From positions 2,816,001 through 2,880,000 of the forward strand of contig CAXXTU010000002.1 in the NCBI GenBank assembly GCA_963662655.2: a stretch of 64,000 nucleotides of DNA. The letters are read 5' to 3'. This stretch comes from Candidatus Cloacimonadales bacterium. Its GTDB lineage: Bacteria; Cloacimonadota; Cloacimonadia; Cloacimonadales; JAIOQZ01. The position numbers and the translations under genes are program-made. Of this stretch, positions 24,574 to 46,031 are shown piece by piece. The first letter of the stretch is position 1, and each line of letters opens with the position of its first letter. The notes under the pieces were generated by a model. That model was not told where the DNA came from and did no database searches. It saw nothing but the letters and a program-made list of their open reading frames with translations.

Positions 24574-25257
24574 ATGGCTGATCGCATAAAGAAAATAACG
24601 CGCAATTATCTCATGCACCCCGAGGGATCCGTTCTTATCGAAACCGGAGACACCAAGGTGATCTGCACTGCGACGGTAGTCGAAGGCGTTCCACCCTTTC
24701 TACGCAATAGCGGAAAGGGATGGGTTACCGCCGAATACGGGATGCTTCCGCGAAGTACTAATACAAGGAATACCCGTCCGGGTCCAACCCGAAACATGAA
24801 TGGCAGGGCTTCCGAGATCCAGCGACTGATCGGCCGCTCACTGCGTGCCGTGGTGGATTTCGAGAAGATGCCCGATTATACCATCCAGATCGATTGCGAC
24901 GTGATTCAGGCCGACGGCGGCACCCGTACGGCATCGATTACAGGTGCATGTGTTGCGATGCGTGATGCATTCCAATGGATGCTCGATAAAGGATTGATCG
25001 TCGAGAATCCCATGCAGGAAATGGTCGCCGCAATCAGCGTTGGCGTAGTCAACGGCGAGAATGTAGTCGATCTATGCTATGACGAGGATTCCAACGCGGA
25101 TGTGGACATGAATGTGGTTATGACCGAATCGGGAAGATTCATCGAGATTCAGGCTACCGGCGAGAAGGATACATTTTCGATCGAACAACATATCCAGCTT
25201 CTCGAACTTGCCGATGAAGGGATTCGCGAACTCATTGTGCTACAGAGAGAGGCGTAA
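24574..25257 (+). CDS. rph: Ribonuclease PH
   Basis: [39 protein letters not shown]. Confidence 0.97.
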
Positions 25258-25377
25258 ACAGGTTCGTTCGATCTGACGCGCAGGCGTAGTGTTATGCCCC
25301 TTTTCATTACGTTCGATAGCCTGAAGGGGCATTATATCTACGCTGGAGCGGCACGATCGGGCGAAGATGTCACGCCG
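25251..25377 (-). repeat. Long structured hairpin element, copy A (opposite orientation to B-D)
   Basis: Revcomp reads CGGCGTGACATCTTCGCCCGATC...GATATA...AACAC...GATCGAACGAACCTGTTTACGCC. Confidence 0.85.
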
Positions 25378-25390
25378 GAAGGGGTAATAA

Positions 25391-26284
25391 TCAATGCAAT
25401 CTGCTTCTCTTGATCAGGTAATTCAGTAAATTCTGCTCGAAGGGCGTGTCGGTTGATATGGGATTGTACTCCACGTGATATTCGTGGCATTTCTGCTTGA
25501 GGTAATCGGTAACGCGATTGAATTCCTGTAGATAATCTTTGCGAATCTGCCAGGGGAATACGGTGATCTTTTCTCCGGTTTCCGAATCCACAAACTGCGT
25601 TTCCTTCTTGAAATCGAATTCCATCTCCTGCCTGTCGAGAATATGGAAGAGAATCACTTCGTGTTTCTGATGCTTGAAATGGCGCAATCCTTGAAGAATT
25701 CTGTCGGGATCATCCATAAAATCCGAGATGATGATGATGAGTCCCCGCTTCTTTATGCGTTCGGCGAGGCTGTGCAGAATCTCTACCGTATTGGTTCCAT
25801 TATCGGGACTGGTATCGATCAATTCTTTGAAAAGGATATCGAGGTAGCTTCGCATGGCTCGTGGTGGAACCATGCGATCGATTTTATCGGAGAAGGTCAG
25901 CAGTCCAACGGCGTCTTGTTGGGTTATCATCAGGTAAGCCAGGGCAGATGCAAGCGTACGCGCGTAATCGAGTTTGCTTGTTTTCCCGGAAGAATACCCC
26001 ATAGATTTGCTGCGATCCAGAATGATCCATGATTTAAGATTGGTTTCTTCCTCGTAACGCTTAATGTAATACCGCTCGGTCTTCGCGAATACCTTCCAGT
26101 CGATGTTGCGAATTGTGTCTCCGGGATTGTATTGGCGATGATCGGAGAACTCCACACTGAATCCATGGTAGGGCGACTTGTGCAACCCGATCATAAATCC
26201 TTCCACGATCTGCCTTGCACGGATGTTGAATCGATCAAGCCGGGCGATGATTTCGTCGGGAATAGGACGTGTTTGCTGTGCCAT
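25391..26284 (-). CDS. DUF58 (vWA-like, MoxR-associated) protein
   Basis: GLHKSPYHGFSVEFSDHRQY.PGD, IDWK, LDRSKSM, IISDF. Confidence 0.92.
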   Translation of the reverse strand: MAQQTRPIPDEIIARLDRFNIRARQIVEGFMIGLHKSPYHGFSVEFSDHRQYNPGDTIRNIDWKVFAKTERYYIKRYEEETNLKSWIILDRSKSMGYSSGKTSKLDYARTLASALAYLMITQQDAVGLLTFSDKIDRMVPPRAMRSYLDILFKELIDTSPDNGTNTVEILHSLAERIKKRGLIIIISDFMDDPDRILQGLRHFKHQKHEVILFHILDRQEMEFDFKKETQFVDSETGEKITVFPWQIRKDYLQEFNRVTDYLKQKCHEYHVEYNPISTDTPFEQNLLNYLIKRSRLH

Positions 26285-26377
26285 AGAATATCCTTCTCAC
26301 TTTCTGAATGGATGCTTGCAGAGGGGGGAGTTTTGTCAAGCAGACAAATCATTCAATATGTTTGATTGATTCGCGAA

Positions 26378-26506
26378 CGGCGTGGCATCTTCGCCCGATC
26401 GGCCCCTCTACGGGGATATACCACACCCTTGATAAATAAGTAAACAGATGAAGCAAGGCTGTGAAACACCCCGTAGAGGGGAGGATCGAACGAATCTGCT
26501 CGCGCC
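26378..26506 (+). repeat. Long structured hairpin element, copy B
   Basis: CGGCGTGGCATCTTCGCCCGATC...GGGGATATAC...GAAACACCCC...GATCGAACGAATCTGCTCGCGCC. Confidence 0.9.
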
Positions 26507-26582
26507 TCTGCAGCAATGTGGGGAAAAAACATAAATCGCTGGACAGGTGCATCATCGTAATCGATCCTTCGTTGGAGGAACA

Positions 26583-27470
26583 ATGGTGAGAATCGTTTTA
26601 ATCGCGTGTATCATTTTTGTGCAGACAACGCAGCTGATATGTTTCACGGGAAACAGCGCTGGAGAGCAGCGGAAATACGATCGTTGGAGGGAGCGGATGG
26701 GAATGGAGCCTGATAGCACGATAGATGGCGAGGTCGAGATCATCGAAGGGTTCGAAATCCCACAATTGGACCGGACTCGCACGCTGAGAATTTTTTTACC
26801 GGAAGAGTATCGCGATTCCGAAGAGCGTTATCCGGTGATTTACATGCACGATGGCCAGAATCTTTTCGACGACCGGACGTCATTCGTTGGTGAGTGGCAC
26901 GTAGATGAGGCGATCAATCGTTTTATCCGGCAGGACGACTGGGGTGGAGCAATCGTTGTCGGTATCGATAACGACGGGAAGCGAAGGCTGGATGAGTATT
27001 CTCCCTGGGTGAATCCGAAGCGTGGAGGCGGTGAAGGCGAGGCATACGTCGAGTTCCTCGTGAAAACGCTCAAACCGTGGATCGACAACAAGTATAGAAC
27101 GTTGCCCGATCGCGACAATACAGCGATTGCGGGAAGCTCCATGGGAGGATTGATCTCCCTGTACGCCGGACTGAAGTATCCGGAAGTCTATTCGAAGCTG
27201 GGGGTATTCTCGCCGGCCTTCTGGTTTGCGAAACGAGAACTGATAGATCTGATCAATCGAGCACGGATCGAGGATGATGTCCGAATCTATATGGATGCGG
27301 GAACGCTCGAGAGCCCATCCTATGTGCCGGATGCCAGGGAGATCGCAACGCTTCTCAGAAACAGGGGCGTAAAGAATCTCCTGCTTGTTGTCGATGATGG
27401 CGCTCGCCACAACGAGACAGCATGGTCGAGAAGATTCCCCGAGGCGATTCGGTGGTTGATGGTAGATTGA
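26583..27470 (+). CDS. Exported alpha/beta-hydrolase (putative esterase)
   Basis: YPVIYMHDGQNLF, GSSMGG nucleophile elbow, HNE; GGAGG RBS. Confidence 0.9.
   Translation: MVRIVLIACIIFVQTTQLICFTGNSAGEQRKYDRWRERMGMEPDSTIDGEVEIIEGFEIPQLDRTRTLRIFLPEEYRDSEERYPVIYMHDGQNLFDDRTSFVGEWHVDEAINRFIRQDDWGGAIVVGIDNDGKRRLDEYSPWVNPKRGGGEGEAYVEFLVKTLKPWIDNKYRTLPDRDNTAIAGSSMGGLISLYAGLKYPEVYSKLGVFSPAFWFAKRELIDLINRARIEDDVRIYMDAGTLESPSYVPDAREIATLLRNRGVKNLLLVVDDGARHNETAWSRRFPEAIRWLMVD
26640..26655. promoter_or_regulatory. parS-like site
   Basis: TGTTTCACGGGAAACA, one mismatch to TGTTTCACGTGAAACA. Confidence 0.55.
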
Positions 27471-27637
27471 GAGACAGAAGATTTATTAGGGATACTTACT
27501 GCAAAAAGCATTGTCAGAGAGCAATTAATCAACTGATTCAATAATTTGAATGATAATATTGTTGCTGTAAAATTTTTAGCTTGACTAAGTGAAATAAATA
27601 GTTCTTTGTGTGGCGTATGGTCTATAGGGGGAGGTGT

Positions 27638-30286
27638 ATGCCTTTTATAGCAATGATCAGAGAGGTTCGAATATTTCTGAATGATCCCATAATTGCAGTT
27701 ATTATTGTTCCGTTTGTTGCTGCGATGAGTGTGATGCTTTATAATTATTTCAGGAGCAATCGAAACAGGAAACAACTAATCTACTCCGTTCTCAGTGATG
27801 GAAAGCACGGGAAATTAGAGTCCTATCAACAAACTTCTACAAACCTCCTCAATGCAAGATACGGAATTGTGCCTTTTGAGGGTGCACATGCCCATTTACA
27901 TAGAAAAGAATATAATATGCTTGAGGATTGGATGAAGTCAAGTGCTAAAGTATCTCTATTTGTATTATATGGGCCTGGAGGGATGGGTAAAACTAGATTA
28001 TTGATTAAAATGGTTGAGTACGCGAAATCAATTGGTTGGATTGCTGGATTTCTTCAAGACAAAGATCAATCTGAGATTATTGAGGGTTTCAAACAGCTAA
28101 GCAGAAAAACATTTATTGTTGTAGATTATGCAGCGAGTCATCCATATTTGGGGACACTGTTGGTGAAATTGCTGATGGATCATTATAATGGCAAGTTTCC
28201 ATTAAGAATTATGTTGTTAGAACGAAGAGCCGGATATTGGGTGGAAAGTCTGAAAAAGAAAATCAGTAATATGGACGTGGAGTTATATGGGGTGGAGAGA
28301 ATATCGGAAACTCTGCCAGACAATCATACACGAACAGAGCTGTTTGCTGAAGCACTAAATGCATTTCAAGTCTTTCGCAAGAAAGAGATATCTATGCTCC
28401 ATGCGCCTAAACTATACGATAAAATCTTTAGCAGGGTTCTTTACATCCATATGGCAGCTCTTGCCTCTCTCGATAATCATGAGGCAGAATCTGGTAAATT
28501 CTGGTCAAATGAGAAACTGATTACTGAAATTCTTAAACATGAAAGATCCGCTTGGTTGCATTACAATAAACGAGAGGGTGAGATAAATGAGGATAAGCTT
28601 GAACGTTTTGTGAGGCGTTGCGACAGGGTAATGACCATTGCAACACTAAGAAATGGTGTACTTCTTGATGATGTGAGTGAGAAATTTGGTCTGAATAAAT
28701 CGGAATATGAAGATGTCTTTGATTATTTGGGAAAAATTTACCCTTCCTTGAAAAGCTCGAAGCAACAAATAGAAATATCTCCTTTAGAGCCGGATGTCTT
28801 GGGAGAGTGGTTGGTATATGAATGCTTAGAGAAGGATCCAAAGTTACTTGAACTATCTATGCAAGGAGCAGGGAGGAAACACATAAATCATGCTATAAGA
28901 ATATTGTGCCATTTGATTGAGCTTGAAAAGCAAAAGCCTGTTGTTTGGTTAAAAGAATTCCTGGATCAAAATGTTGAAGAAAGATTTATGGAGGCATTTT
29001 ATGTGCTGCTAAATATTGGAAACTCGTTTATATGCCAGCAAGTAGCCGATACGATGTCAAAACTGATTAATGATCGGTTCACTGAAGATCAGCTGGAAGA
29101 GATGAAAGAAAAAATATCTTCCGAGCATTCATCGTGGTTTCTTTTTAAGAGCGCTATTCTTGAACAAATGGTTTCCTTGTATCCGAGTGCATCCGAGAAT
29201 AAAGTAGTACTGATAAGGCGCGCAAGTATCCTTATGCAGTTGGGTTATTTATATAGCAAGGCAGCACGGTTCAAGGAGGCTATTGGTGTATGGGTTGAAT
29301 GTGACGGCCTGCATAATTTTCTGATGAATGATGATGATGAGTACTTCTCATCGGAACATTTGACTGTATTGAATAATTTAAGTGTAGCGTACTCGAAAAT
29401 AGGAAATGATGAGAAATCACTTACTACGATTATTGATTATGTGATTTTATGCCGTAAGCAATGTAAGACCAAATCTAAGATGTTTAAACTGGATCTTGCT
29501 TTGGGATTGCAAAACCTCTGTAGTGATTATATAGGTCTAATGATATTCGATGCCGCACTGGAAGCAATCGATGAAGCAATTAGTATTAGAGAAGAATTTT
29601 ACTCAAGTGTCAATGGTTTGCATATTTCAGGCTCTGATGGACTTGATGAATTCCGGATTATTAGTGAGAGCCATGGGGATTTCCAAGAACAAATGGAATG
29701 TGTAGGCTATATGATCACCAATTTTGGAAGAGAATACATGGACAAAAATGCACAATTATTGGCTTTGGGCTATAGCTCAAAAAGGGATATTCTGGATAAA
29801 ATGTCACGCAAAGAAGAAGCTCTTGAAGTAGCAAAAAAATCTGTAGAGATTATGAAGAAACTTGTTGCGAAAGATGCTGATACCTATATGGACAGGTATG
29901 CTTCCTGCTTGAATGGTTTGGCTTTGTCATATCTCTCCTTAAAAGACTATAGCAGTGCCATTATTGCCTCATTAGAAGCACTTGGATTCATTAAAAAGGT
30001 ATTTCATATACGCAAAACGGTATATGTTGATAAATATGTCAATATATTGAAGACGCTTGGGATATGTTATTTACAAGCTAATCAAATTGCTGAGTGTGTA
30101 GAATTGATTGAAAAATCAATTAACGAACTCATACCCTTTATTGGAATGAATCCGCAAAATAATGGTCGCTTATTGCGAGAACTTACTGAATTTTATGAAG
30201 GTATTTTGGTTCAATGTGACATAGAGCCAGCCAGTAGGGGGGTTTACAATCAGGCAGTTTTAATCTTAGGCCAATCCAATCTATAA
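27638..30286 (+). CDS. AT-rich P-loop NTPase (STAND-like) with N-terminal TM helix and C-terminal TPRs
   Basis: GPGGMGKTRL Walker A, FIVVDYA Walker B, LEPDVLGE, TPR-like LNNLSVAYS/LNGLALSY; GGAGGT RBS. Confidence 0.75.
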   Translation: MPFIAMIREVRIFLNDPIIAVIIVPFVAAMSVMLYNYFRSNRNRKQLIYSVLSDGKHGKLESYQQTSTNLLNARYGIVPFEGAHAHLHRKEYNMLEDWMKSSAKVSLFVLYGPGGMGKTRLLIKMVEYAKSIGWIAGFLQDKDQSEIIEGFKQLSRKTFIVVDYAASHPYLGTLLVKLLMDHYNGKFPLRIMLLERRAGYWVESLKKKISNMDVELYGVERISETLPDNHTRTELFAEALNAFQVFRKKEISMLHAPKLYDKIFSRVLYIHMAALASLDNHEAESGKFWSNEKLITEILKHERSAWLHYNKREGEINEDKLERFVRRCDRVMTIATLRNGVLLDDVSEKFGLNKSEYEDVFDYLGKIYPSLKSSKQQIEISPLEPDVLGEWLVYECLEKDPKLLELSMQGAGRKHINHAIRILCHLIELEKQKPVVWLKEFLDQNVEERFMEAFYVLLNIGNSFICQQVADTMSKLINDRFTEDQLEEMKEKISSEHSSWFLFKSAILEQMVSLYPSASENKVVLIRRASILMQLGYLYSKAARFKEAIGVWVECDGLHNFLMNDDDEYFSSEHLTVLNNLSVAYSKIGNDEKSLTTIIDYVILCRKQCKTKSKMFKLDLALGLQNLCSDYIGLMIFDAALEAIDEAISIREEFYSSVNGLHISGSDGLDEFRIISESHGDFQEQMECVGYMITNFGREYMDKNAQLLALGYSSKRDILDKMSRKEEALEVAKKSVEIMKKLVAKDADTYMDRYASCLNGLALSYLSLKDYSSAIIASLEALGFIKKVFHIRKTVYVDKYVNILKTLGICYLQANQIAECVELIEKSINELIPFIGMNPQNNGRLLRELTEFYEGILVQCDIEPASRGVYNQAVLILGQSNL

Positions 30287-30319
30287 AAATCTATTCAATA
30301 AAGTAAAAGTCATTTGTGG

Positions 30320-30442
30320 CACAAGGCCATCTGGAACGGCGACGACGAAGGCGGCAAGCGAGTCTCTTCGGGTGTGTATTTGTACCGGCTGGAAACAACT
30401 GGCGACGAAAAGGTACGAAAAATGCTTATGTTAAAAAAATAA
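30320..30442 (+). pseudogene. 3' remnant of a FlgD/T9SS-type CTD gene
   Basis: HKAIWNGDDEGGKRVSSGVYLYRLE...VRKMLMLKK* with no 5' part. Confidence 0.8.
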
Positions 30443-30479
30443 ACGAGTAAAACCTGAAAATCAACCCGAGGAGGTATTC

Positions 30480-32360
30480 ATGCGAGTCTTGATAGCTACA
30501 TTCGTAATTCTGATCATTGTAAGTACCCTTTTTGCGGACGGTATTCAGCCGGAAGGGTCCGGAACGCAGGTTGATCCGTACCGGATTGATTCTCTGGACA
30601 ACCTCCTCTGGCTCGGAACGAGAGAGGCTGCTATCACTGGATACTACATCCAAACGACCGATATAAACGCAGCACCGACACGTGACTGGTTTGATGGCAC
30701 CGGATTTCTCCCGATCGGCGAATCCGCGTCTAACCCGTTCTCAGGCAACTTCGATGGTCAGGGATATGTCATCGATAGCTTGTATATCAATAATGACGGT
30801 TGGGATGGATATGCTATGTTCCGGTTTATCACGGAAGCCACCATCCGGAATGTCAATCTCACAAACGTCGATTGCAGTGGGGAAGATTGCCTGGCGGGGC
30901 TTACCGTTGTAGCTACCAACTCCTTCATCAACAATTGTCATGTGGACGGCAACTTCTCCGGGCGCTTTAGCATCTCGACCCTGGTAAGCAATGCCAGCTC
31001 ATGCCAGATCGTCAACTGCAGCGCGGCGGGTACGATTACGGGCACCCAGAGCGCTGCTGGCGGGTTGATATCCGAGGCGTCCGATATTGAAATGAGCGAT
31101 TGCTCATTTAACGGTACGGTGAACGGTTACCAGTATGCCGGCGGACTCATTGGCTTCATCTACAGCAGCACGGCCACGGTTGAGAACTGCACGGTGGATG
31201 GGTTTGTCACTGGGGTATCGTATGTTGGCGGTATTGTGGGTAGCAGCAATTCCGATATAACGGATTGCGTGGTTCATGCGGATGTGGAAGGTGTGATGTA
31301 CACCGGCGGTATTTTGGGCTATTCATGGGGCGTCGATGTATCAGGGTGCGCAACAACGGGCAATGTTAAAGGCGAGACCAGAACAGGGGGTATCATCGGT
31401 TGCGCGAACTTCGGGAGCGAAACGATCGATTGCAGGTTTCTCGGAACGGTGTATGGAACTTTCTATGTCGGCGGAATCAACGGTGAGTCTGTAGAATCGG
31501 ACATCAACGATTCCTATATCAATGCGACCGTGACAAGCTCCGGGAATCTAACCGGTGGAATGGTGGGGTACCAGACAACGGCCAGCTCCGTGAATGGGTG
31601 TTTCGCGAAAGGCGTCGTATCGAGTGAAGGTAATTCCGTCGGCGGTATTGTCGGCTGGAACAACGGCGGTTCGACGATAACGAATTGCTACAATTTCGCG
31701 CAGATATCGGGCAACGAGCGAGTCGGAGGTATTACCGGAAGGAACATCGTTAATGCGGAGGTGCATAACTGCTACAGCAAGGGGCTCATCGAGGGTGTCG
31801 ATGAAACAGGCGGGTTAGTAGGCTTCAGCAGCTCGATTGTTGAAAACTCCTTCTGGGATACGGAAACCTCCGGCCAGGAACAAAGCTCCGGCGGAACGGG
31901 ACTTTCCACGGAAGATATGTTGTCGATTGCGACGTACCTGGATGCCGGGTGGGATTTTATTGGCGAGACGGATAACGGTATTGAAGACATCTGGACGTTG
32001 AATGTCAATATCAACGAAGGGTATCCCTATCTGACCTGGCAGAACTACCTGACGGCGCCAGAAGATGAGGTCGCTCCACCCGTTCAGGAGATTCTCCTTT
32101 CCAACTATCCCAACCCGTTCAATCCAACTACGACGATCTCGTTCTCGATCCCGAAGGACGACAAGGTTGAGTTGAAAGTGTATAACATCAGAGGACAGCT
32201 CGTAAAGACGTTGGTAAACGACAACCTTGAAGCAGGGAAACATGAGGTTATCTGGAACGGTAAGGATACGCAAAATCGAAGCGTGGGTTCCGGTGTGTAT
32301 CTCTATCGACTGGAAGCCGGTGGTAAATCAATAGTACGGAAAATGCTTATGTTAAAATAA
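30480..32360 (+). CDS. Secreted GLUG-repeat beta-solenoid protein with FlgD/T9SS-type CTD
   Basis: Signal peptide, GSGT..DPY.I, repeated VGG.VG, NSFWD.ETSGQ, NYPNPFNPTTTI...KMLMLK. Confidence 0.88.
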   Translation: MRVLIATFVILIIVSTLFADGIQPEGSGTQVDPYRIDSLDNLLWLGTREAAITGYYIQTTDINAAPTRDWFDGTGFLPIGESASNPFSGNFDGQGYVIDSLYINNDGWDGYAMFRFITEATIRNVNLTNVDCSGEDCLAGLTVVATNSFINNCHVDGNFSGRFSISTLVSNASSCQIVNCSAAGTITGTQSAAGGLISEASDIEMSDCSFNGTVNGYQYAGGLIGFIYSSTATVENCTVDGFVTGVSYVGGIVGSSNSDITDCVVHADVEGVMYTGGILGYSWGVDVSGCATTGNVKGETRTGGIIGCANFGSETIDCRFLGTVYGTFYVGGINGESVESDINDSYINATVTSSGNLTGGMVGYQTTASSVNGCFAKGVVSSEGNSVGGIVGWNNGGSTITNCYNFAQISGNERVGGITGRNIVNAEVHNCYSKGLIEGVDETGGLVGFSSSIVENSFWDTETSGQEQSSGGTGLSTEDMLSIATYLDAGWDFIGETDNGIEDIWTLNVNINEGYPYLTWQNYLTAPEDEVAPPVQEILLSNYPNPFNPTTTISFSIPKDDKVELKVYNIRGQLVKTLVNDNLEAGKHEVIWNGKDTQNRSVGSGVYLYRLEAGGKSIVRKMLMLK

Positions 32361-32401
32361 ATAATCGAGTAAAATCTGAAAATCAACCCGAGGAGGTATT
32401 C

Positions 32402-36557: not shown

Positions 36558-36687
36558 CGGCGTGGCATCTTCGCCCGTTCCGCTCCTCAAAGGGGATATA
36601 CCACAGCCTTGGTATTCGAGGGGAGCTAATGCAACAAGGCTGTGAAACACCCCATTGAGGAGCGGATCGAACGAACCTGCTCACGCC
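36558..36687 (+). repeat. Long structured hairpin element, copy C
   Basis: CGGCGTGGCATCTTCGCCCG...GGGGATATAC...GAAACACCCC...GATCGAACGAACCTGCTCACGCC. Confidence 0.9.
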
Positions 36688-37378: not shown

Positions 37379-37638
37379 TGTTGTTTTTTATTGATCGTTT
37401 GCTTTGGCTGTATGAGATGGTGATCATTATCCGGGCGCTGATCTCGTGGTTCTCACCACATCCGGCCAATCGTTTGTACAGGTTTCTGATCGATATAACG
37501 GATCCGGTGATGCGGCCCGTTCGCGATACATTGTTACGTCTGATGCCGAACATGGGAATCGATTTTTCACCGCTGGTGGTCATTCTGATCATCGAGTTCG
37601 TGAGAAAACTCTTGTTTGGCGGGATAGGTCTTTTTTAA
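37378..37638 (+). CDS. yggT: YggT family membrane protein
   Basis: IIRALISWF.P, TDPVMRP, IDFSPLV. Confidence 0.92.
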   Translation: MLFFIDRLLWLYEMVIIIRALISWFSPHPANRLYRFLIDITDPVMRPVRDTLLRLMPNMGIDFSPLVVILIIEFVRKLLFGGIGLF

Positions 37639-37659
37639 AACAAAGCCTTGGGAGGTAGT

Positions 37660-38304
37660 ATGGAAAAACTGGAATTGACTCCTGTCGACATTCGTCACAA
37701 GGAGTTCCCTACCGGTCTTGCCGGGTATAAAAAGGAAGAAGTACGGGAATTTTTAGAAATCGTATCCACCCAGATGGAAGACCTGATATCGCAGGCAGCC
37801 AGAGTGGAAAAGAAAGTTCCAGATTTTCGAGAAGAACCGCGTCCAGCTACAATCCAGCCTCCTGCGCCGAAACCGCAGCCGATTATTGAAGAAAAGCCCA
37901 AAGCCACCGAAGACCTGATCAGTCGTACGCTCATCATCGCCGAGCAGACCAAGACGGAGATTATCGCTACCGCCAAGAAGGACGCCGAGCGCATCCTGCG
38001 TAACGCCGAACTCGAAGCGAAAAAGACCATCGAAGAAGCCCATCGCTACCTGGAAGTCCTCGACCGCAAGTACAAGGAAATCAAGCTGGAGAAGAAAGAA
38101 TTCCTCTCGCAATACAAGGCGGAGCTTGAAGACATCCTGGATAAGATCACCAAGAGCACGGTTCTGAACAAAGAGATGGAAGACGAAATGGATCAGCATT
38201 TCGAACGGGCTAAAAAAGTACGCTACAATCCCGGAGATGAAATCAAGAATGAAAAAGCAATTGAACGAAACAATACAATACCTGAAAACGAGAGTCCGAA
38301 GTAA
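37660..38304 (+). CDS. divIVA: DivIVA domain protein
   Basis: LTPVDIRHKEF...GYKKEEVREFL plus coiled coil. Confidence 0.88.
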   Translation: MEKLELTPVDIRHKEFPTGLAGYKKEEVREFLEIVSTQMEDLISQAARVEKKVPDFREEPRPATIQPPAPKPQPIIEEKPKATEDLISRTLIIAEQTKTEIIATAKKDAERILRNAELEAKKTIEEAHRYLEVLDRKYKEIKLEKKEFLSQYKAELEDILDKITKSTVLNKEMEDEMDQHFERAKKVRYNPGDEIKNEKAIERNNTIPENESPK

Positions 38305-39076
38305 GCCGGTTCTGGCGGTAATTCTCGGAACGGGCTTGAACGATCTCGCCGATTCCGGCATTCAGATCGCCGAGTTCCCGTATGGAAACATACCGGGATT
38401 CGCACGGTCAACCGCCCCGTCCCACAAAGGCAGGATGGTCTTCGCCAGCATTGAAGGCAACGACGTCCTGTTCCTGCAAGGCCGCCTCCACTTTTACGAA
38501 GGCTACCCGATGACGCAAATCACCTATCCGATCCGCGTTCTCAAAGAGATGGGCATCGAGAATCTGGTGATCACCAACGCATCGGGAAGCCTCAACGAAG
38601 CGATGGGCCCCGGCTCGATCGTCATCCTGAACGACCATATCAATCTGATGGGGACCAATCCGTTGATCGGTTCGCCCGAGCAGATCCCCGGCGAGCGTTT
38701 TCCAAGCCTGCACGAACCCTACAGTCGTGAGCTGATTGCTTGCGCGAAACGAGTGGCCGAAAAGAACGACATCAAGATTCACGAGGGTGTCTACGCCGCC
38801 GTGAGCGGCCCCAGCCTCGAGACGAGAGCCGAATGCGTGATGCTTTCACGCCTGGGCGCCGACCTGGTGGGAATGTCCACCGTGCCGGAAGTGATCGTGG
38901 GCGTTCAATGCGGAATCAGGATTTTAGGTGTATCGATTGTAACCAATTACAGCAATATGTTCCATTCACAATCACACTCGCAGGAAGAAATTCGTAAACA
39001 CGCGGCCCTTGCTGCTGATAATCTGAAAACGTTGATAAAGGGGATCATTCCCGAATTGAATAGAAGAGGGTCGTAG
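38249..39076 (+). CDS. punA: Purine-nucleoside phosphorylase (trimeric type)
   Basis: ILGTGL, QGRLHFYEGY, GPSLETRAE, VGMSTVPEV. Confidence 0.93.
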   Translation: MKKQLNETIQYLKTRVRSKPVLAVILGTGLNDLADSGIQIAEFPYGNIPGFARSTAPSHKGRMVFASIEGNDVLFLQGRLHFYEGYPMTQITYPIRVLKEMGIENLVITNASGSLNEAMGPGSIVILNDHINLMGTNPLIGSPEQIPGERFPSLHEPYSRELIACAKRVAEKNDIKIHEGVYAAVSGPSLETRAECVMLSRLGADLVGMSTVPEVIVGVQCGIRILGVSIVTNYSNMFHSQSHSQEEIRKHAALAADNLKTLIKGIIPELNRRGS

Positions 39077-39472
39077 ATGGCATCGAAAAGCTTGAGTAAT
39101 GAACTGCTGAAACAATATGAAAAGGAATTGCTTCTTGAAAAAGAAGAGACGATTCGCATCATTAACGAGATAAATGATAAACAGAAAAAGGGGATGAAAA
39201 ACGGTTCGGGCGATTCCTCGTCCTTCGCGTATCATCAGGCGGACCAGGGAACAGACACCGGCCAGTACGAAAAAGAAACGTACCTGCTGGAACAGGAACA
39301 CGAGAAGCTGAAAAAGATCAACCAGGCGCTCAAGCGAATCTACGAACGCACCTACGGCATATGCGAGATTTGCGGCTGCGAGATTCCTGCGGCAAGAATG
39401 AAAATCATTCCCTGGGCCAAGACCTGCATCGAGTGTAAATCGAAAGAAGAGAAGAGAAAAAACGGTAGATGA
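39077..39472 (+). CDS. dksA: TraR/DksA C4-zinc-finger protein
   Basis: HQADQGTD, YGICEICG, PWAKTCIEC. Confidence 0.85.
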   Translation: MASKSLSNELLKQYEKELLLEKEETIRIINEINDKQKKGMKNGSGDSSSFAYHQADQGTDTGQYEKETYLLEQEHEKLKKINQALKRIYERTYGICEICGCEIPAARMKIIPWAKTCIECKSKEEKRKNGR

Positions 39473-39966
39473 AAACTCGATACTTTTTTCTGATCACCGC
39501 GGTGGTCATCTTCTGGGATCAACTTAGCAAGATCATTGTGCGCTCAACGATGGAGGTCGGCGAGATTGTGCCGGTTCTCGGCAACTACTTCAGAATCTGG
39601 CACGTCACCAACACCGGGGCTGCATTCAGCATGTCCACAGGCTCGGTATCGCTCGATCGCTGGATACTCACCGCGGTCGGAGTTATCGCGTCGGGCCTGA
39701 TCGTGTATCTCCTGATCAAGCAGGAAGACGCGGTACCCAAGACGTGTCTCGCACTGATCCTCGGCGGCGCTCTCGGGAATTTGATCGACCGCGTAATTTA
39801 CGGCAGGGTCACGGATTTTCTGGACAGCGATTTTCCCGATTTCATAATGGAGCGGTGGCCCGTGTTCAATGTCGCCGATAGCTCGATCGTTATTGCGATA
39901 ACAATATATGTGATATATATACTGTTTTTAGAAAAAAGGATTGTTACCCGTTCAGGGGAGGAGTAA
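39469..39966 (+). CDS. lspA: Lipoprotein signal peptidase II
   Basis: DQLSK, NTGAAFS, GGALGNLIDR, VTDF, FNVADS. Confidence 0.97.
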   Translation: MKTRYFFLITAVVIFWDQLSKIIVRSTMEVGEIVPVLGNYFRIWHVTNTGAAFSMSTGSVSLDRWILTAVGVIASGLIVYLLIKQEDAVPKTCLALILGGALGNLIDRVIYGRVTDFLDSDFPDFIMERWPVFNVADSSIVIAITIYVIYILFLEKRIVTRSGEE

Positions 39967-41903
39967 TGAAGAAAATCTTTCTATTCATCGCGATTGCCTT
40001 GCCTTTGATGATGCTCGCGCAGGACATCACGCCAATCGCCCAGATTCAGGAAAACATTAACCAATACAATGGCCATGAAGTCACCATAGAAGGTGTTGTA
40101 ACCATCGGTGCGGGACTTCTGTACGATACCCGCTTGCAGTGTTACCTTCAGGACGAGTCCGGTAAAGGTATCCAGGCTTTCGATTACGATATCACCAATG
40201 CCTACGAGCAGGCCTTCGTGCGCGGTAATCGCCTGCAAATCACCGGTACCATCGAAGAGTACAACGGCGTTACCGAAATCACCGACTTCGATTTCGAAAT
40301 CATGTCCACCGGAAACCTCATTCCCATGACAGACCTCACGGTCTCCGAGATGGGTAATTATCAAACCTGGGAAGGTTCCATGACATGGTTCTCCGGCGTT
40401 GTGACCGATTCGTACAGCGCGGGTGGCGGCTTGAACGTGACGCTCGAGAACACCTCCGGGGAAGAAATGCTCTATCGCCTCTGGGATTCATGTGACGTGG
40501 ATCCGGATATCGCGGTTGGCGATCAGCTTGTCGCAAAAGGTGTGATCAGCTCCTACAACGGATCGCCACAGCTTCTTCCGGCCTACCTGGAAGATTTCAC
40601 GCCGTTCTCATCTGTCATTCAGCCCAATCTTATCTTCTCGGAAGACGACATCACTGTGAAGGTTCGTGTGGAGTGGCCGGAAAACATCGCAACCATGGAG
40701 TTGCAATACGCTCTCCAGAGCGACATGGTATACCACACGCTGATTCTCGCGCCGATCGATGGCGTCGACCGGGGATACCAGGGAACGGTGCCTCCACTGA
40801 ATACGCTTACAGACGCATCCGACAATTATGTTTTCCGTTACGTTGGCAAGGACAGCGCTGGCTCGACACTCGTTACCGGCGATCCGATAGCGGTCGTAGT
40901 CTATACGGGCGTGCCGTTCATCGAAGGTGTGGAATTTTACTCGCAGTTTACCGAGACCTACAATTTCATCCAGTATCCCTTCAACGATGAAAGAATAACC
41001 ATCGTTGCGGAAGTGGTGGACGATCTGGGCGAAATCTCCGAAGTGGCCGTTCATTACGGTCTGAAGAGCCAGGCTTCCATGGATTCCGTGCTTATCCTCG
41101 AACCGGATGACGGCAACCTCTTCGAGGGCGATCTTCCCGCTATGACGGACATCACGGAGCTGGACGACGACTTCGTTTTCCAGGTCTGGGTTACGGACGA
41201 CGCGGATAACGTGATTCACTCGGAAGAGATCGAGATCGTGGTTGCTCCGCGAGCGCCAGTCGTATACGATATGGAATTCCTCAACGTCCCCCAGCCGGGT
41301 GAAGACCTGGAATTCGGCGTGAACATCTGGGATACGGACGGCGATCTTACCGAGCAGTTCATCCAGTATCAGCTCGATTACTCCTCGGACGGACATACCG
41401 CTCCGCTGGTTCGCGATACCACTTATTCCGATACCACGCGCTACATCGGCGTGATCCCGGGAAAATCCTCGGGAACGACCGTTTTTGCTCATGTTGTCGC
41501 TTACGATAACGACGGCTACTCGACATACAACATTCCCGGCTACGAAGAGATGGAAGTGGAGTACACCTATCCGGTGTTTTCGCACAAGGCGATCCTCAAG
41601 GTTCCGCCGCATCCGTTCAATCCTTACGCCGGTGAAACCCTTCCCATCGATTTCTATTCCAAACAGGGCGACAAGGTTCTGCTGAGAATCTACAGCTCCT
41701 CCGGAAAGCTGGTTCACACGGCCAAGAACTTCATCATCGACGACGAAAACGGCATCAACCGTTTCGAGTGGGACGGAAAGAACCGCTCCCGCAGTGTTCT
41801 TCCGTTGGGAATGTATATCTGTCACCTTGAAGTAACCGAAACCGACACCGGTAACAAGAAAACCGCGAAAGCGCCCATTGTAATCGGCGCACCGCTTAAA
41901 TAG
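39966..41903 (+). CDS. Secreted acidic protein with OB-fold-like N-terminal domains, Ig-like repeats and FlgD-like CTD
   Basis: Signal peptide, TPIAQIQ...VTIEGVVT, PHPFNP...WDGKN...GMYI. Confidence 0.7.
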   Translation: MKKIFLFIAIALPLMMLAQDITPIAQIQENINQYNGHEVTIEGVVTIGAGLLYDTRLQCYLQDESGKGIQAFDYDITNAYEQAFVRGNRLQITGTIEEYNGVTEITDFDFEIMSTGNLIPMTDLTVSEMGNYQTWEGSMTWFSGVVTDSYSAGGGLNVTLENTSGEEMLYRLWDSCDVDPDIAVGDQLVAKGVISSYNGSPQLLPAYLEDFTPFSSVIQPNLIFSEDDITVKVRVEWPENIATMELQYALQSDMVYHTLILAPIDGVDRGYQGTVPPLNTLTDASDNYVFRYVGKDSAGSTLVTGDPIAVVVYTGVPFIEGVEFYSQFTETYNFIQYPFNDERITIVAEVVDDLGEISEVAVHYGLKSQASMDSVLILEPDDGNLFEGDLPAMTDITELDDDFVFQVWVTDDADNVIHSEEIEIVVAPRAPVVYDMEFLNVPQPGEDLEFGVNIWDTDGDLTEQFIQYQLDYSSDGHTAPLVRDTTYSDTTRYIGVIPGKSSGTTVFAHVVAYDNDGYSTYNIPGYEEMEVEYTYPVFSHKAILKVPPHPFNPYAGETLPIDFYSKQGDKVLLRIYSSSGKLVHTAKNFIIDDENGINRFEWDGKNRSRSVLPLGMYICHLEVTETDTGNKKTAKAPIVIGAPLK

Positions 41904-41912
41904 GGGTTCGAT

Positions 41913-42785
41913 ATGAAGATCAAAAACGTCATTGGAATCATCATTTTAGCCATATCGATCATGCCGGCTCTTCACGGTATTTTCGACGAGTACGAACCCT
42001 CGGCAAGAGCTCGCGCCATGGGTGGAACCTACACCGCGCTCTCGGACGATGCGGACGGTATTTTCTACAATCCGGCCGGTTTGATGCTGGGAAGCAACCA
42101 GGTAAAAGCTGGTTATACCAAGGTTTTCGGTAACGATTTCCAGGTTCTCACGGTTGTCGATGCGTCTTGGGATCTGCCCAAGAGCTATGGCCGTATCGCA
42201 TTTGGATACACCGGAATGGATGTGGATTATCAGGACGTCAACATGATGTCCGAAAAGACCTTCATGCTGGGCCACTCCTTTACGCTGATGAAGGACGTCC
42301 ACTCTCAATTGCATGTGGGTTATACCGCCAACGCATACCACATCTCCATGGACGGTTTCAGCAACCGGACCACCTATGGTATCAACCTGGGCGCCACCGC
42401 CGTACTGCACACCAGAACACGCCTGGCGTTCGCCATCACGAACATCAACAACCCGCGTGTTGGTAAGGACGACGATTACGAGCTTCCGCAGGAGATGACC
42501 ATCGGTATCGCGTATGTTCCCTATACCGGCGTTATCACGACGCTCGATGTGAAAAAGACATTCAACGCGCCTTCCGATACCGGCGAGAGCACCACGGAAA
42601 TCCATGCGGGTGTCGAGGCAACGTTGTTCGAGATTATTTCTCTCAGAATGGGTGTGCAGGACGACCCGACCATGTACAGCGCAGGTGTGGGCATCAACGT
42701 TCACGGCGCAATGGTGGAATACGCATATCAGGTGCATAGCGTCCTCGACGACACACATCATTTCGGTATCGGCTTCAACTTCTAA
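41913..42785 (+). CDS. PorV/PorQ-like outer-membrane beta-barrel (T9SS shuttle family)
   Basis: SARARAMGG...A..DDA..IFYNPAGL plug motif; ends GIGFNF. Confidence 0.8.
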   Translation: MKIKNVIGIIILAISIMPALHGIFDEYEPSARARAMGGTYTALSDDADGIFYNPAGLMLGSNQVKAGYTKVFGNDFQVLTVVDASWDLPKSYGRIAFGYTGMDVDYQDVNMMSEKTFMLGHSFTLMKDVHSQLHVGYTANAYHISMDGFSNRTTYGINLGATAVLHTRTRLAFAITNINNPRVGKDDDYELPQEMTIGIAYVPYTGVITTLDVKKTFNAPSDTGESTTEIHAGVEATLFEIISLRMGVQDDPTMYSAGVGINVHGAMVEYAYQVHSVLDDTHHFGIGFNF

Positions 42786-42800
42786 AGGAGAGGGCAGCCT

Positions 42801-43106
42801 ATGAAAAAGAAAGACAAGAAAGGCACTGTGATCCCTGCTGCAAATAGCTGGGTGACGCAAATTGTCGCAATGGTTTTCGATCTCATCAAGCATGTGATCA
42901 AAGATTTCGAGATGAACCGCAATATCAAGAAGGCGACCGATGTGGCCGAGCAGTTTTCCACGGTGGAACACCTGATTCTCAAGGTGGAAACGAAGATCAG
43001 CGACAACCGGAAGGCAATCGAGGATTTGAAGAACCGTCTCCTGTGGAGCAATATCATCATCATTGCGCTACTGGTCACGGTCGTGATACAGGTTATTGCG
43101 AAGTAA
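42801..43106 (+). CDS. Hypothetical coiled-coil protein with C-terminal TM
   Basis: RBS, 101 aa, hydrophobic tail. Confidence 0.65.
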   Translation: MKKKDKKGTVIPAANSWVTQIVAMVFDLIKHVIKDFEMNRNIKKATDVAEQFSTVEHLILKVETKISDNRKAIEDLKNRLLWSNIIIIALLVTVVIQVIAK

Positions 43107-43131
43107 TTCGAACAACAATAGACTTTTACAT

Positions 43132-43165
43132 GGCGGTTCCACCACGGCGGAACCGCTTATTTTTT
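43132..43165 (+). terminator. Intrinsic terminator
   Basis: GCGGTTCC-loop-GGAACCGC followed by TTATTTTTT. Confidence 0.7.
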
Positions 43166-43181
43166 CCCAGAGGAACGAACG

Positions 43182-45881
43182 ATGAATCAGAAATTAATCC
43201 TTATCGATGGAACCGCCATCATCTACCGAACCTATTACGCCTTTATCAACCGGCCGCTCATCAACAGCAAGGGACTCAACACAAGCGCGATTTTCGGCAC
43301 TGTGAACACCTTCCTGAAGCTTCTGGATACGTTCGACACGGACAATGTCGTGATTTCTTTCGATCTCAAAGAGAAGACATTCCGTCACAAGCTGGACGAG
43401 AACTACAAGGCGAATCGCCCGGAGATGCCAGACGACCTGGTGAGCCAGATCCAACCCATTCGGGAATTTTTCGATATCATCGGGATCAAGACCTGCACGA
43501 AGGCGGGTTTCGAGGCTGACGACGTGCTGGCGACGCTCACCGAGAAGTGCCACGGCGATTACGATATTGTGCTGGTTACAGGGGATAAGGATTACGCCCA
43601 GTTGGTGGACGAAAACATCGTGATGTACGATCCATTCAAGGGAGAGACGTTGCGCCGTGAGGAGATTGAAGAGAAATACGGCGTTACGCCCGAGCAATTC
43701 GTGGATTTCCTGGCGCTTGTCGGCGATACAGCCGACAACATTCCAGGCGTGAAGGGTATCGGGAAGAAGGGCGCAGCCAAGCTGCTGGAAGATTATGGAA
43801 CGCTGGAAAATCTCTACGACCATCTGGATGATATCTCCTCGAAAAGTACGAAGAAGAAGCTGGAAGAGGACAGGGACAACGCGTTCCTTTCGCAGACCCT
43901 TGCACGCATGGTACGCGACATCGAGATGGATTTGAACGAGAAGGAATTCCGGTTCGATCGCGGTAATATCGACAAGGCCATCCCCTTTTTCCAGGAGTAC
44001 GAGCTCAAGTCCATCCTGAAAAAGGTGGCGGGACAGCAGGAGCTTGATTTGTTCGCGGAGGATGAAGAAGCATCGGAGACAAGCGGCGTTCACTTCGAGT
44101 CGATCCTGATCGACACGGAGGAAAAGCTGGAGAAAATGATTTCCGGGATACCATCCAAAGGCGTTGTCGCGATCGATACGGAGACAACCTCCACGGATCC
44201 GATGATGGCCGAGTTGGTGGGGGTATCGCTGTGCTGGGAAGAGGAGAAGGCGTACTATCTACCGTTCTCGCACAACATGTCGGATAACCTCGACTGGAAG
44301 AAATCTCAACCGAGGCTGAAAAAGGCGCTTTTCGGCTGCAAACTTGTGGGTCACAATATCAAATACGATCAGCATGTTTTGCGTCGTGCAGGGTGGTTTT
44401 TGGAGAATGTTTACTTCGATACGATGGTCGCGGCGTATGTTATTGCCTCCGGGGAAATGCGTTATTCGCTGGATACCTGCTCCAGGAGGGAACTCGATTT
44501 CGAGATGATACCGATCAGCGATTTGATCGGCAGCGGGAAGAACCAGACGACCTTCGACATGACGGATACGCACGATGCTTGCAGGTATGCCGCCGAGGAC
44601 GCCAATATCACGTTCAGGCTGTATCATGTATATAGTAAGCGTTTGGATGACATGGATATGGGAAGGCTCTTCTACGATATCGAGATGCCGCTGATCGACG
44701 TGCTCTCGAAGATGGAGGAGAACGGCGTTTTCATCGATGTGGAGATTCTCGACGAGATATCCCGAAAGACCCAGAAGCGTGTCGCGGAGCTGCAGAAGGA
44801 TATTTACGATGCGTGCGGCAAACCGTTCAATATCAACTCGACGAAACAGCTTGCGGAAGTGCTTTTCGGCGATCTTGGCATCAAGCCTGTGAAGAAGACG
44901 AAGACGGGACTTTCAACCGACAACAGTGTGCTCGAAGCGCTGGCGCAGGAGCATGAGATTGCCCGTCTCCTGATGGAATATCGTATGCTCACGAAGCTGG
45001 AAAATACCTACACAACAGCGCTCCCCAAGATGATCAATCCGCACACGGGAAGGATTCATTCGAGCTTCAATCAGACAGTCGCATCCACAGGACGGCTTTC
45101 AAGCAGCAATCCGAATTTGCAGAATATTCCCAGCAGGACAGACCTTGGGCGCGAGATACGCAAGGCGTTTGTTCCCGAGAAGAAAGATTACGTAATCCTC
45201 GCGGGTGATTATTCTCAGATCGAGTTAAGGCTTGCGGCGATCATGTCATGCGACGAGAATCTGATCAACGCGTTCCGCAACAAAGAGGATATCCATCGCC
45301 AAACGGCGGCGATTATCTTCGAGAAGGATCCGGCCGATGTAACGCAGGATGATCGCAAGAAGGCCAAGGTGATCAACTTCGGTATTCTTTACGGTATGGG
45401 CGCAACCAGGCTTTCGGGTGAACTGAATATCTCCCGGAGTGAGGCACAGGAGTTCATCGAGAACTATTTCGCCAAGTTTCCAACGATCAAGGCGTTCATC
45501 GACAATCAGATCCAGACTGCGCGAGACAGGGGATACTCCGAGACGATGCTGGGCAGACGGCTGGAGTTGCAGGGGTTGCGGAGCTCGAATCAACGTTTCC
45601 GCAGCGAAGCGGAGCGCGTGGCGATCAATATGCCGATTCAGGGAAGCGCTGCCGATATCATCAAACTCGCCATGATCGAGATCAATCGAAAACTGCCCGA
45701 GTTCAAGATGATCATTCAGGTACACGACGAACTGGTATTTGAGGTTGAGCGCAGTCAGGTGGAGGAAGCGACGAAGAGGATCAAAGATATCATGGAAAAT
45801 GCGCTGCCAGACAAGTACAAGGGGATTGTTCCGCTCGATGTTGAATTCAGCTATGGGGAGAACTGGCTGGAGGCGCATTAA
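43182..45881 (+). CDS. polA: DNA polymerase I
   Basis: LIDG, FEADD, DTETT 3'-5' exo, TGRLSSSNPNLQNIP, DYSQIELR, QVHDEL. Confidence 0.98.
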   Translation: MNQKLILIDGTAIIYRTYYAFINRPLINSKGLNTSAIFGTVNTFLKLLDTFDTDNVVISFDLKEKTFRHKLDENYKANRPEMPDDLVSQIQPIREFFDIIGIKTCTKAGFEADDVLATLTEKCHGDYDIVLVTGDKDYAQLVDENIVMYDPFKGETLRREEIEEKYGVTPEQFVDFLALVGDTADNIPGVKGIGKKGAAKLLEDYGTLENLYDHLDDISSKSTKKKLEEDRDNAFLSQTLARMVRDIEMDLNEKEFRFDRGNIDKAIPFFQEYELKSILKKVAGQQELDLFAEDEEASETSGVHFESILIDTEEKLEKMISGIPSKGVVAIDTETTSTDPMMAELVGVSLCWEEEKAYYLPFSHNMSDNLDWKKSQPRLKKALFGCKLVGHNIKYDQHVLRRAGWFLENVYFDTMVAAYVIASGEMRYSLDTCSRRELDFEMIPISDLIGSGKNQTTFDMTDTHDACRYAAEDANITFRLYHVYSKRLDDMDMGRLFYDIEMPLIDVLSKMEENGVFIDVEILDEISRKTQKRVAELQKDIYDACGKPFNINSTKQLAEVLFGDLGIKPVKKTKTGLSTDNSVLEALAQEHEIARLLMEYRMLTKLENTYTTALPKMINPHTGRIHSSFNQTVASTGRLSSSNPNLQNIPSRTDLGREIRKAFVPEKKDYVILAGDYSQIELRLAAIMSCDENLINAFRNKEDIHRQTAAIIFEKDPADVTQDDRKKAKVINFGILYGMGATRLSGELNISRSEAQEFIENYFAKFPTIKAFIDNQIQTARDRGYSETMLGRRLELQGLRSSNQRFRSEAERVAINMPIQGSAADIIKLAMIEINRKLPEFKMIIQVHDELVFEVERSQVEEATKRIKDIMENALPDKYKGIVPLDVEFSYGENWLEAH

Positions 45882-45902
45882 AGATTTCAGGTTATTGCTT
45901 AC

Positions 45903-46031
45903 CGGCGTGGCATCTTTGCCCGATCACCCTTTTCAACGGGGATATACCGCGCCTTGGAGACTACCGGACACGCGATAAAAAGGCGCGAAACACCCCGTTG
46001 AAAAGGGAGATCGAACAAATCTGCTCACGCC
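45903..46031 (+). repeat. Long structured hairpin element, copy D
   Basis: CGGCGTGGCATCTTTGCCCGATC...GGGGATATAC...GAAACACCCC...GATCGAACAAATCTGCTCACGCC. Confidence 0.9.

Follow-up and report, generated by a model that had tools for sequence, protein, structure and literature searches.

A family of covarying hairpins in one genus of Candidatus Cloacimonadales, probably a mobile element that works as a folded DNA single strand

The 64-kb window, by which we mean the whole stretch of DNA analysed, carries four copies of a long hairpin, all found at the coordinates given in a preliminary description of the sequence. The stems quoted there and both single swaps (TTTG/CAAA in copy D, ACA/TGT in copy A) are present as well. 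Copy A (25251-25377) is reversed, its orientation as first drawn being on the minus strand; it lies between the convergent rph (RNase PH) and DUF58 genes, and one arm of its closing stem overlaps the final codons and the stop of rph. Copy B (26378-26506, plus strand) is located between the divergent DUF58 and esterase genes and has an A-rich 22-nt loop. Copy C (36558-36687, plus strand), with a 23-nt loop, lies 8 nt past the stop of a gene for a secreted FlgD-Ig/T9SS-type protein, and copy D (45903-46031, plus strand) lies 22 nt past the polA stop. Measured against 200 shuffles, the folding of each copy was much better, whichever strand was taken (z -5.5 to -11.2). Contigs of two DNA runs span this stretch; a clean empty site was absent from them, and their joints derived from other copies.

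The anatomy is best followed along the plus strand of copy D. Its outer module is formed by a 5' arm (45904-45925), comprising the 6-bp closing stem and a conserved 16-mer, and by a 3' arm with the other side of the closing stem (46009-46031). On the strand as first drawn, this module contains TC/TC and CC/AA mismatches and a bulged T; on the opposite strand it reads as a GA/GA tandem, two G·T wobbles, and a bulged A. It is followed by the spacer stem S1 (45926-45937, paired with 45997-46008), whose sequence is free. The two-fold symmetric inner site comprises a first half (45938-45950; 4-bp foot, unpaired ATATA, and start of stem S2) and a second half (45985-45996; end of S2', unpaired AACA, and 4-bp foot), and the tip loop (45956-45979) measures 24 nt.

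To survey the family, we searched this genome (G000) and its relatives with a model, as the preliminary description had suggested. A refined search of G000 gave 140 matches, of which four were discarded by eye as spurious, leaving 136 dispersed, intergenic copies; the reversed genome gave none. A search for arm pairs returned 127 copies, with no matches at E<1 in the reversed genome. Three congeners (G001, G002, and G003) contained 33-63 model matches each, and four other genomes of the same bacterial family contained none. Within the GTDB collection, the exact pattern was confined to three assemblies of Ca. Cloacimonadales. The pattern with a swapped inner site occurred in four genomes among 232 of the phylum, and model matches in 2 of 140 sampled genomes; these four and these two genomes all belong to this genus. 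Metagenome searches gave 0 and then 7 matches and viral contigs 2, among which only one (L239) scored as related, in the outer module only. Judged by these searches, the family appears to be genus-restricted. No Rfam family matched the window at the gathering threshold, and 10 copies produced only sub-threshold matches to miRNA-type hairpins. None of the 20 papers listed by one search of the open-access literature contained a Cloacimonad term.

The fold is maintained while its sequence changes. In an alignment of 44 copies, 94.9% of the cells were paired and 26 of 31 pairs showed two-sided changes, a level reached by 0 of 500 shuffles; slid controls were 26-40% paired. In a set of 111 copies, chosen by anchors that 11 of 122 copies did not fit, we corrected for relatedness with a tree that excluded the 3' stem arms. 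Here, 33 of 36 testable pairs co-changed beyond unpaired column pairs (p<0.05; 19 at p<0.01). The covariation described from four copies thus persists with more copies and after correction for kinship. The terminal pairs were among the most variable positions, and the unpaired ATATA/AACA, spanning 9 columns, required a single parsimony step, in agreement with the earlier remark that unpaired positions are the most conserved. The stems, rather than the tip loop, are the variable part. These patterns support selection acting on the fold of a single strand. Template switching and block replacement, instead of stepwise selection, may account for some of the covariation.

Next to the dominant ATATA/AACA (166 copies), the inner loop classes assigned in 208 of 225 copies were AACA/ATGA (18), ATGA/AACA (8), AAGA/AAGA (3), AACG/AACG (2), and AACA/ATATA (2), so that the symmetric site occurs in both orders. 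In 175 of 208 copies, each arm of S1 was 11-13 nt long, keeping the spacing fixed. The feet are paired and variable: GTGG/CCAC (128/208) and GTAG/CTAC (11/208) together account for about two thirds, and GTGT, GTAT, GGGG, and GTGA were also observed. They did not covary with the flanks in 208 copies, and no guide-target covariation was found. The loops of the four window copies do measure 21-24 nt, but the fixed-length hypervariable loop described earlier was not confirmed: across 121 copies, loops span 3-285 nt, with 19-25 nt in 61. Most loops of 16-32 nt (48/75) fall into two motif subfamilies that are related to each other, CTATCGA (41, including copy A) and CTACCGG (7, including copy D), and elsewhere we found tips of 3-7 nt or inserts of other repeats. 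The 27 unique loops matched their own genome no better than shuffles did, and copy D had no match in phages or plasmids. By these comparisons, the loops do not behave like spacers, as the variable part of CRISPR- or DGR-like systems would match host or phage DNA.

Which strand folds was assessed from wobbles, stability, and tips. At non-fixed stem positions, G·T pairs numbered 188 on the opposite strand and 66 on the strand as first drawn, and 37 of 45 short copies carried a C-GNA-G tip on the opposite strand, although both counts come from related copies, not independent events. C-GNA-G is described as a DNA mini-hairpin motif (PMC13037366). The opposite strand was also more stable in 223 of 225 copies with RNA parameters and in 210 of 225 with DNA parameters. 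The folded strand is therefore probably the opposite of the one first drawn. On the strand as first drawn, the invariant inner loop is rich in A, an observation that could argue for that strand.

Orientation follows replication. In 100 of 136 copies (p 4e-8), the strand as first drawn matches the G-rich sequence of the leading strand, and the bias was present in every gene context (35:15, 29:8, 14:7, and 10:0). A dif-like site at C2:796610 confirmed the position of the terminus. In the congeners, judged by local skew, 29/30, 24/29, and 26/30 examined loci shared it; the loci examined covered 30 of 35, 29 of 41, and 30 of 63 listed matches. A second repeat family in the same genome showed no bias (28:25). 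Copy A is among the 36 copies in the minority orientation, which were not more decayed by score (p 0.49). The CTATCGA subfamily was unbiased (22:19), which counts against a mobile element. Since orientation follows the replichore and not transcription, of the two options offered in the preliminary description, a structured ncRNA or a single-stranded DNA substrate, the latter fits better.

Gene context bears on the RNA option. Copies lay between convergent genes in 52 of 122 cases, compared to 150 of 1037 long gaps genome-wide, and between divergent genes in 10 of 122. For half of the copies, a stop codon lay no more than some 30 nt away (medians 33 and 27 nt), and the copies adjoined housekeeping operons, not cassette arrays. 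This placement could be explained by a domesticated mRNA element, that is, a long 3'-UTR hairpin (a terminator aid, an RNase III site, or a protein-binding RNA) that spread earlier and is now maintained because the host selects for the RNA fold. Tandem GA and G·U pairs are RNA-like, and several species have sites in common with the motifs intact. ERIC and bcr1 are described as acting at the RNA level (PMC3184786). However, in co-directional gaps either strand is transcribed (39 vs 21), the worse-folding one more often, and the replication orientation holds even between convergent or divergent genes. The short tip, moreover, fits a DNA GNA triloop, not a closed UUCG tetraloop, and no Rfam family corresponds. 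We therefore regard an mRNA element as quite unlikely.

Comparison between species revealed gain or loss and exchange in place. At one orthologous site in G003 and G002, 345 nt with the element corresponded to 19 nt. Synteny extended to both sides in 13 orthologous pairs; in 6 of these, whole inner stems or the site order had been replaced while the outer part was unchanged. Neighbours within 10 kb were best matches in 5 of 33 pairs in the same orientation and in 0 of 23 in opposite orientation, against a background of 2.2%. A head-to-head doublet was seen twice, with different flanks. Direct repeats in the flanks of 111 copies did not exceed shuffled pairing, so no target duplication was detected, and neither end had a conserved target tetranucleotide; flank columns were weakly conserved and differed between species. 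A host origin of the closing-stem arm was suggested once, by the E-A codons of rph at the copy A site in the element-free G003 orthologue, and was rejected when 15 and 21 other comparisons gave 1.1 and 1.4 matches of 6, which is chance at low power. Downstream of xerD, a copy lies 9 nt past the stop in G000 and is absent there in the congeners. Numerous copies have stayed at matching sites in different species, and this is compatible with a host function as well. Nearest-neighbour identity in G000 was at most 0.945 (median 0.82); with no recent twins, there is no sign of present activity in this genome.

The preliminary description had proposed looking for an adjoining HUH/RAYT, tyrosine recombinase, RT, or nuclease gene, and no such partner was found in G000 or its relatives. 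G000 has no Y1/RAYT gene, and none of 17 Y1 loci in five relatives had a copy within 1.5 kb. Integron integrase (IntI) was absent from 8 genomes, and no Rep_OBD was found. IS110 occurs within the genus only in G002, with no copies beside it. Among 45 tyrosine-recombinase or DUF559 loci scanned in relatives none adjoined a copy, and only XerC/D were recognised as tyrosine recombinases common to the four genus genomes. The single RT of G000, an AbiP2-like defence RT with an internal stop, has no copy within 1.5 kb, and G001 has no RT. GIY-YIG genes were flanked by other REPs, and among the listed proteins flanking G000 copies, inspected by eye in our own gene calls, no recurring nuclease or recombinase family was conspicuous. 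Of the earlier proposal that a protein reads the fold, selection on the fold is supported by covariation, but the reading protein did not emerge from these searches. The absence of a mobiliser counts against a mobile element.

The congeners carry several RAYTs and DUF559 genes that G000 lacks, and the element occurs there in ordered mosaics with other REPs. The hairpins could thus be the orphaned REP/REPIN family of a RAYT, or another small nuclease, lost by G000, with covariation being mostly a by-product of template switching; a few copies indeed have one arm converted to the perfect complement of the other. GTGG/CCAC or GTAG/CTAC feet also resemble the 'double-foot' REPs described in PMC6006769. 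We found a copy at the matching G000 gene end for 4 of about 8 distinct congener RAYT sites, but about 29% of congener element sites (26/89) map to such gene ends, so that this is no clear excess. No RAYT is flanked by the element, the feet vary freely without covarying with the flanks, and the RAYT-less genome holds most copies with motifs intact, making this origin very unlikely.

In G001, a 313-aa ORF (37% GC, no Pfam match) is enclosed by a pair of almost identical copies in direct orientation; at this place G003 carries a single copy, and G002 has one plus a partial second. Together with the in-place swaps and single-site deletion forms, this recalls an attC-like recombination site of an unknown system, whose folded strand would be the exchange substrate, with inner cassettes swapped and genes between direct copies gained or lost. 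As in attC sites, structure is conserved over sequence, and paired arms, a 4/5-nt unpaired spacer, an extrahelical base, and a variable tip are present; as described for sedentary integrons, it is the leading-strand template that carries the better-folding strand (PMC5371416). Unlike attC, the family has neither an integron integrase nor arrays, and single copies follow housekeeping genes in either gene orientation. The R''/R' boxes of attC have the consensus RYYYAAC and GTTRRRY. Both are absent from the family consensus and columns, and XerC/D arms are absent from the element. The G001 ORF is the single clear case of capture, and another foreign gene beside a copy is bounded by direct repeats of a different REP, indicating that capture is not specific to this element. 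An attC-like site is accordingly improbable. A bolder version, unlikely in our view, is that the hairpins serve as substrates for an undescribed system of single-strand recombination needing neither integron integrase nor RAYT. In such a system, an outer docking duplex and a symmetric site set at a defined distance from it would permit inner-cassette exchange in place and gene uptake between direct copies at the fork.

We consider it reasonably probable that the family is a non-autonomous mobile element, confined to this genus, that works as a folded DNA single strand, most likely the opposite strand. For such an element, the fold would display two sequence-specific modules, the outer duplex (GA/GA tandem, two wobbles, and bulge) and the inner symmetric site around its 4/5-nt unpaired spacer, with a stem of indifferent sequence keeping the two modules at a distance of about 12 bp. 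A protein dimer, encoded elsewhere or now lost, may bind the folded strand exposed at the replication fork, and could cut and rejoin it without target duplication. Copies would survive near gene ends, where they are harmless, and template switching and conversion between copies would preserve arm complementarity while the mismatches required by the protein are retained.

How long palindromic repeats without a known transposase, such as ERIC, bcr1, and CGTC-type REPs, spread and retain their fold is an open question. This family supplies more than 250 aligned natural variants from four genomes and defines a minimal form, a symmetric site, and rules for spacing and strand, which allows a binding protein to be sought with designed substrates. 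It also advises caution in covariation screens, as strong compensatory change here points to DNA and not to an RNA gene.

Among known systems, ERIC/IRU (~127 bp) and bcr1 of the Bacillus cereus group (~155 bp) are described (PMC3184786) as long imperfect palindromes that, like this family, are confined to a lineage, lie between genes, show compensatory changes, and do not keep their positions. By their descriptions, the family is set apart from both by lacking a TA or 5-bp target duplication, by ends that covary instead of being conserved, by a symmetric inner site in both orders, and by a fixed spacer stem. It shares with MITEs a long stem-loop, compensatory changes, and positions differing between relatives, and lacks conserved TIRs in common with a transposase-bearing IS; orphan arms enclosing a gene were not found. 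IS200/IS605 ends and their non-autonomous derivatives are likewise single-stranded, fork-coupled, and free of target duplication as described in PMC6006769; they differ in having a fixed end tetra- or pentanucleotide, two subterminal hairpins instead of one, and TnpA, which G000 lacks. Likenesses to hairpin-ribozyme loop B, the sigma-70 -10 box, the pMV158 nick site, and dif arms were dropped, as each fails in the loop variants. With REPIN/REP-RAYT systems and BIMEs, the family has in common high copy number, extragenic location near 3' gene ends, conserved mismatches, doublets, REP mosaics, and vertical persistence; a hairpin bulge is reported to be required by E. coli TnpA-REP (PMC8266576). 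Unlike REP-RAYT systems, it has no flanked RAYT and no guide-flank covariation, and it forms one continuous hairpin of 110-130 nt with strong replichore polarity; its paired and variable feet perhaps differ from the fixed GT[AG]G foot (GTAG at the hairpin base) that in REPs lies 5' of the hairpin and selects the cut site. On our best reading, the family would combine an ERIC/bcr1/REPIN-like lifestyle with an attC-like anatomy.

The four hairpin copies named in the preliminary description lie in the window where it placed them (copy A, 25251-25377, minus strand; copies B, C and D, 26378-26506, 36558-36687 and 45903-46031, plus strand) and align as it described. Each forms one long hairpin on either strand, and none of 200 shuffles folded as well. 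The window is a 64-kb portion of a 3.8-Mb genome (99% complete), in which a two-arm profile search found 127 paired copies, with none in the reversed genome. An outer-module search gave 140 matches, four of which were removed by eye as spurious, leaving 136 copies. When a covariance model was scored on the best 150 candidates per genome, at least 131 matches were obtained here and at least 63, 40 and 33 in three congeners (G001, G002 and G003 are the congeners; a few matches are opposite-strand doubles), and none among the best 150 candidates from each of the family's four other genomes. Within the GTDB collection, an exact pattern matched only three Candidatus Cloacimonadales assemblies, and the swapped-site pattern was absent from 228 other genomes of the phylum. 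The sole relative seen outside the genus is an outer module (34 bits) on a metagenome contig (L239:767-902), nested within longer inverted repeats and adjoined by a small HTH gene. No corresponding family was found in Rfam and no description in the open literature searched; a preprint (10.64898/2026.09.22.753630) concerns, in its available text, other elements. These are real, undescribed, genus-restricted, non-autonomous hairpin repeats.

In the orientation first described (hereafter the reference strand), the element comprises, from the outside inwards, a closing stem of 6-7 bp and a conserved outer duplex interrupted by TC/TC and CC/AA mismatches and by a bulged T. Next come a spacer stem, an inner site (4 bp, an unpaired 4/5-nt loop, 4 bp), and an inner stem with its tip. 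The covariation claimed for the stems proved strong in every helix, and a tree-aware test gave p<0.05 for 33 of the 36 pairs that could be tested. The spacer stem is unconstrained in sequence, and both its arms measure 11-13 nt in 175 of 208 copies. The inner loop, callable in 208 of 225 copies, is ATATA/AACA in 166; the other classes are AACA/ATGA (18), ATGA/AACA (8), AAGA/AAGA (3), AACG/AACG (2) and AACA/ATATA (2). The two halves can thus stand either way round on one strand, and the inner site is two-fold symmetric, as would be expected if a dimer bound it. The tip is not the fixed-length hypervariable loop originally proposed: it spans 3-285 nt, with 19-25 nt in 61 of 121 copies, and falls mostly into motif subfamilies, and the loop sequences did not match the host genome beyond the shuffled level. 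Long tips are insertions of other repeats, one of which is tandemly arrayed in a congener. The tip insert of 83 nt also exists as a repeat in its own right (C2:1736696-1737092, C1 and C2 being coordinate prefixes in the window's genome; also at locus L283) and forms tandem arrays within and outside the element.

The working strand is likely, rather than certain, to be the opposite of the reference strand, because the counts below take in related copies, which overstates independence, and because the reference strand has an A-rich sequence in the invariant inner loop. At stem positions other than the fixed mismatches, the reference strand carries 188 A.C (G.T on the opposite strand) versus 66 G.T. 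Folding favours the opposite strand in 223 of 225 copies modelled as RNA and in 210 modelled as DNA; on it, the fixed mismatches become a GA/GA tandem plus two wobbles, and C-GNA-G, reported as a very stable DNA mini-hairpin tip (PMC13037366), is the tip of 37 of the 45 short copies.

By our own gene calls, convergent genes flank 52 of 122 copies versus 150 of 1037 long gaps, and divergent genes flank 10 versus 274; copies lie a median of about 30 nt from a stop codon. A domesticated 3'-UTR RNA element would sit in such places, but we consider it unlikely: orientation is tied to replication, not transcription, which points to DNA. In 100 of 136 copies the reference strand coincides with the G-rich sequence of the leading strand, and this polarity is seen in each gene context. 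A dif-like site near the GC-skew switch (C2:796610) confirms the terminus, and local skew agrees with the polarity at 29/30, 24/29 and 26/30 loci examined in the congeners. The CTATCGA-loop subfamily is unbiased (22:19) and may be younger. A second dispersed family, also replichore-unbiased (28:25), occupies about 53-65 loci in the same genome (e.g., C2:22812, C2:184759), none in the window; it consists of a variable AT-rich hairpin, a short GC hairpin with a GNA tip and a conserved C-rich motif, in this order. The polarity could mean that insertion of the reference strand takes place on the lagging-strand template, the pattern reported for IS608 (PMC6006769), or that the better-folding strand is kept off that template, as reported for attC in sedentary integrons (PMC5371416).

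No target duplication was found at element copies, and no two copies within the genome are identical (closest pair, 0.945). Comparing G003 with G002, copies at some orthologous sites are present in one and absent in the other; one site measures 345 nt with the element versus 19 nt, and there the element is accompanied by adjoining REPs of other families. In the congeners examined, the gene ends that match those of copies A and B carry no element. The terminal arm of copy A (window 25248-25257) coincides with the last rph codons, also present in the element-free G003 orthologue; comparisons of other copies, which had low power, did not show such a host origin of the arm to be general. Intergenic regions of G002 and G003 (e.g., loci L285, L262/L283, L295) contain five or six REP-like families, arranged as ordered mosaics that share one orientation and are gained or lost blockwise, and small modules are inserted in other hairpins, including the element's ATATA loop (L219, L220).

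Eighteen copy pairs lie beside orthologous genes, 13 of them syntenic on both sides. In seven of these the copies are close; in six, flanks and outer part are kept while whole stems, tip class or site order are replaced. In a few copies an arm has been converted to a perfect complement. These changes fit inter-copy conversion and template switching (PMC8794818), so that stepwise selection is not the source of all covariation; selection must nevertheless hold the retained mismatches. Of copies no more than 10 kb apart, 5 of 33 same-orientation pairs and 0 of 23 opposite pairs are best matches of each other (background 2.2%); the numbers are small, and a tandem gene duplication may account for one case. 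In five doublets (C2:13790, 90008, 2254773, 2349468, 2468389) the two copies are 25-57 nt apart and always head-to-head; two of the five are a single doublet at different sites, with different flanks.

The window's genome, which has the most copies, contains no Y1 transposase, DUF559, IS110 or integron integrase gene; its one RT is interrupted and of an AbiP2-like defence type (C2:981050-982608). RAYTs and GIY-YIG genes, several in number, are present in the congeners, but the repeats that flank each of them are other ones, and an orphaned RAYT-type REP is accordingly very improbable. A GIY-YIG gene at C2:885122 has an internal stop and lies among its own REP family. Among the flanking proteins scanned, which are a part of the whole, no partner-like recurrent gene family was found.

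In G001, two near-identical direct copies after iorB flank a 313-aa, 37% GC ORF (L294:8883-9824) with no Pfam match and a weak PIN-like lead only; this site has one copy in G003, one plus a partial second in G002, and one followed by other genes in the window's genome. Low-GC foreign genes directly follow a copy at L167:1725-2582 (G001) and L115:1792-2214 (G002). The former matches PDC-S31, a candidate defence family, and direct repeats of another REP lie on either side of it; capture between repeats is therefore not peculiar to the element. An ISL3 element (window 15178-16524) is one of 12 near-identical genome copies, three of which adjoin a hairpin copy. A predicted promoter with perfect sigma-70 consensus (window 46584-46613) precedes a PAS-domain gene after copy D, and Mu-like prophage genes occur in three to five near-identical copies at several places on C1 and C2.

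The fold, its modules and their spacing, the symmetry, the polarity, the gains and losses and the in-place exchange are demonstrated. We favour, as the probable mechanism, a single DNA strand that would fold into the hairpin at the replication fork, be read by a dimeric protein, and be cut and rejoined without duplication. That a new single-strand recombination system uses the element as its substrate is a bolder proposal and unlikely. The element follows unusual rules: its symmetric site occurs in both orders, the spacing is 12 bp, orientation follows replication, and parts are swapped in place. These rules make the mechanism testable. The element resembles ERIC, bcr1 and REPINs in lifestyle, as reported for these (PMC3184786, PMC3116915, PMC3733652, PMC8266576), but has neither the target duplication of ERIC and bcr1 nor the flanked RAYT of REPINs. 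In architecture it is like attC, but R boxes are lacking and IntI is absent, and an attC-like exchange site is correspondingly unlikely.
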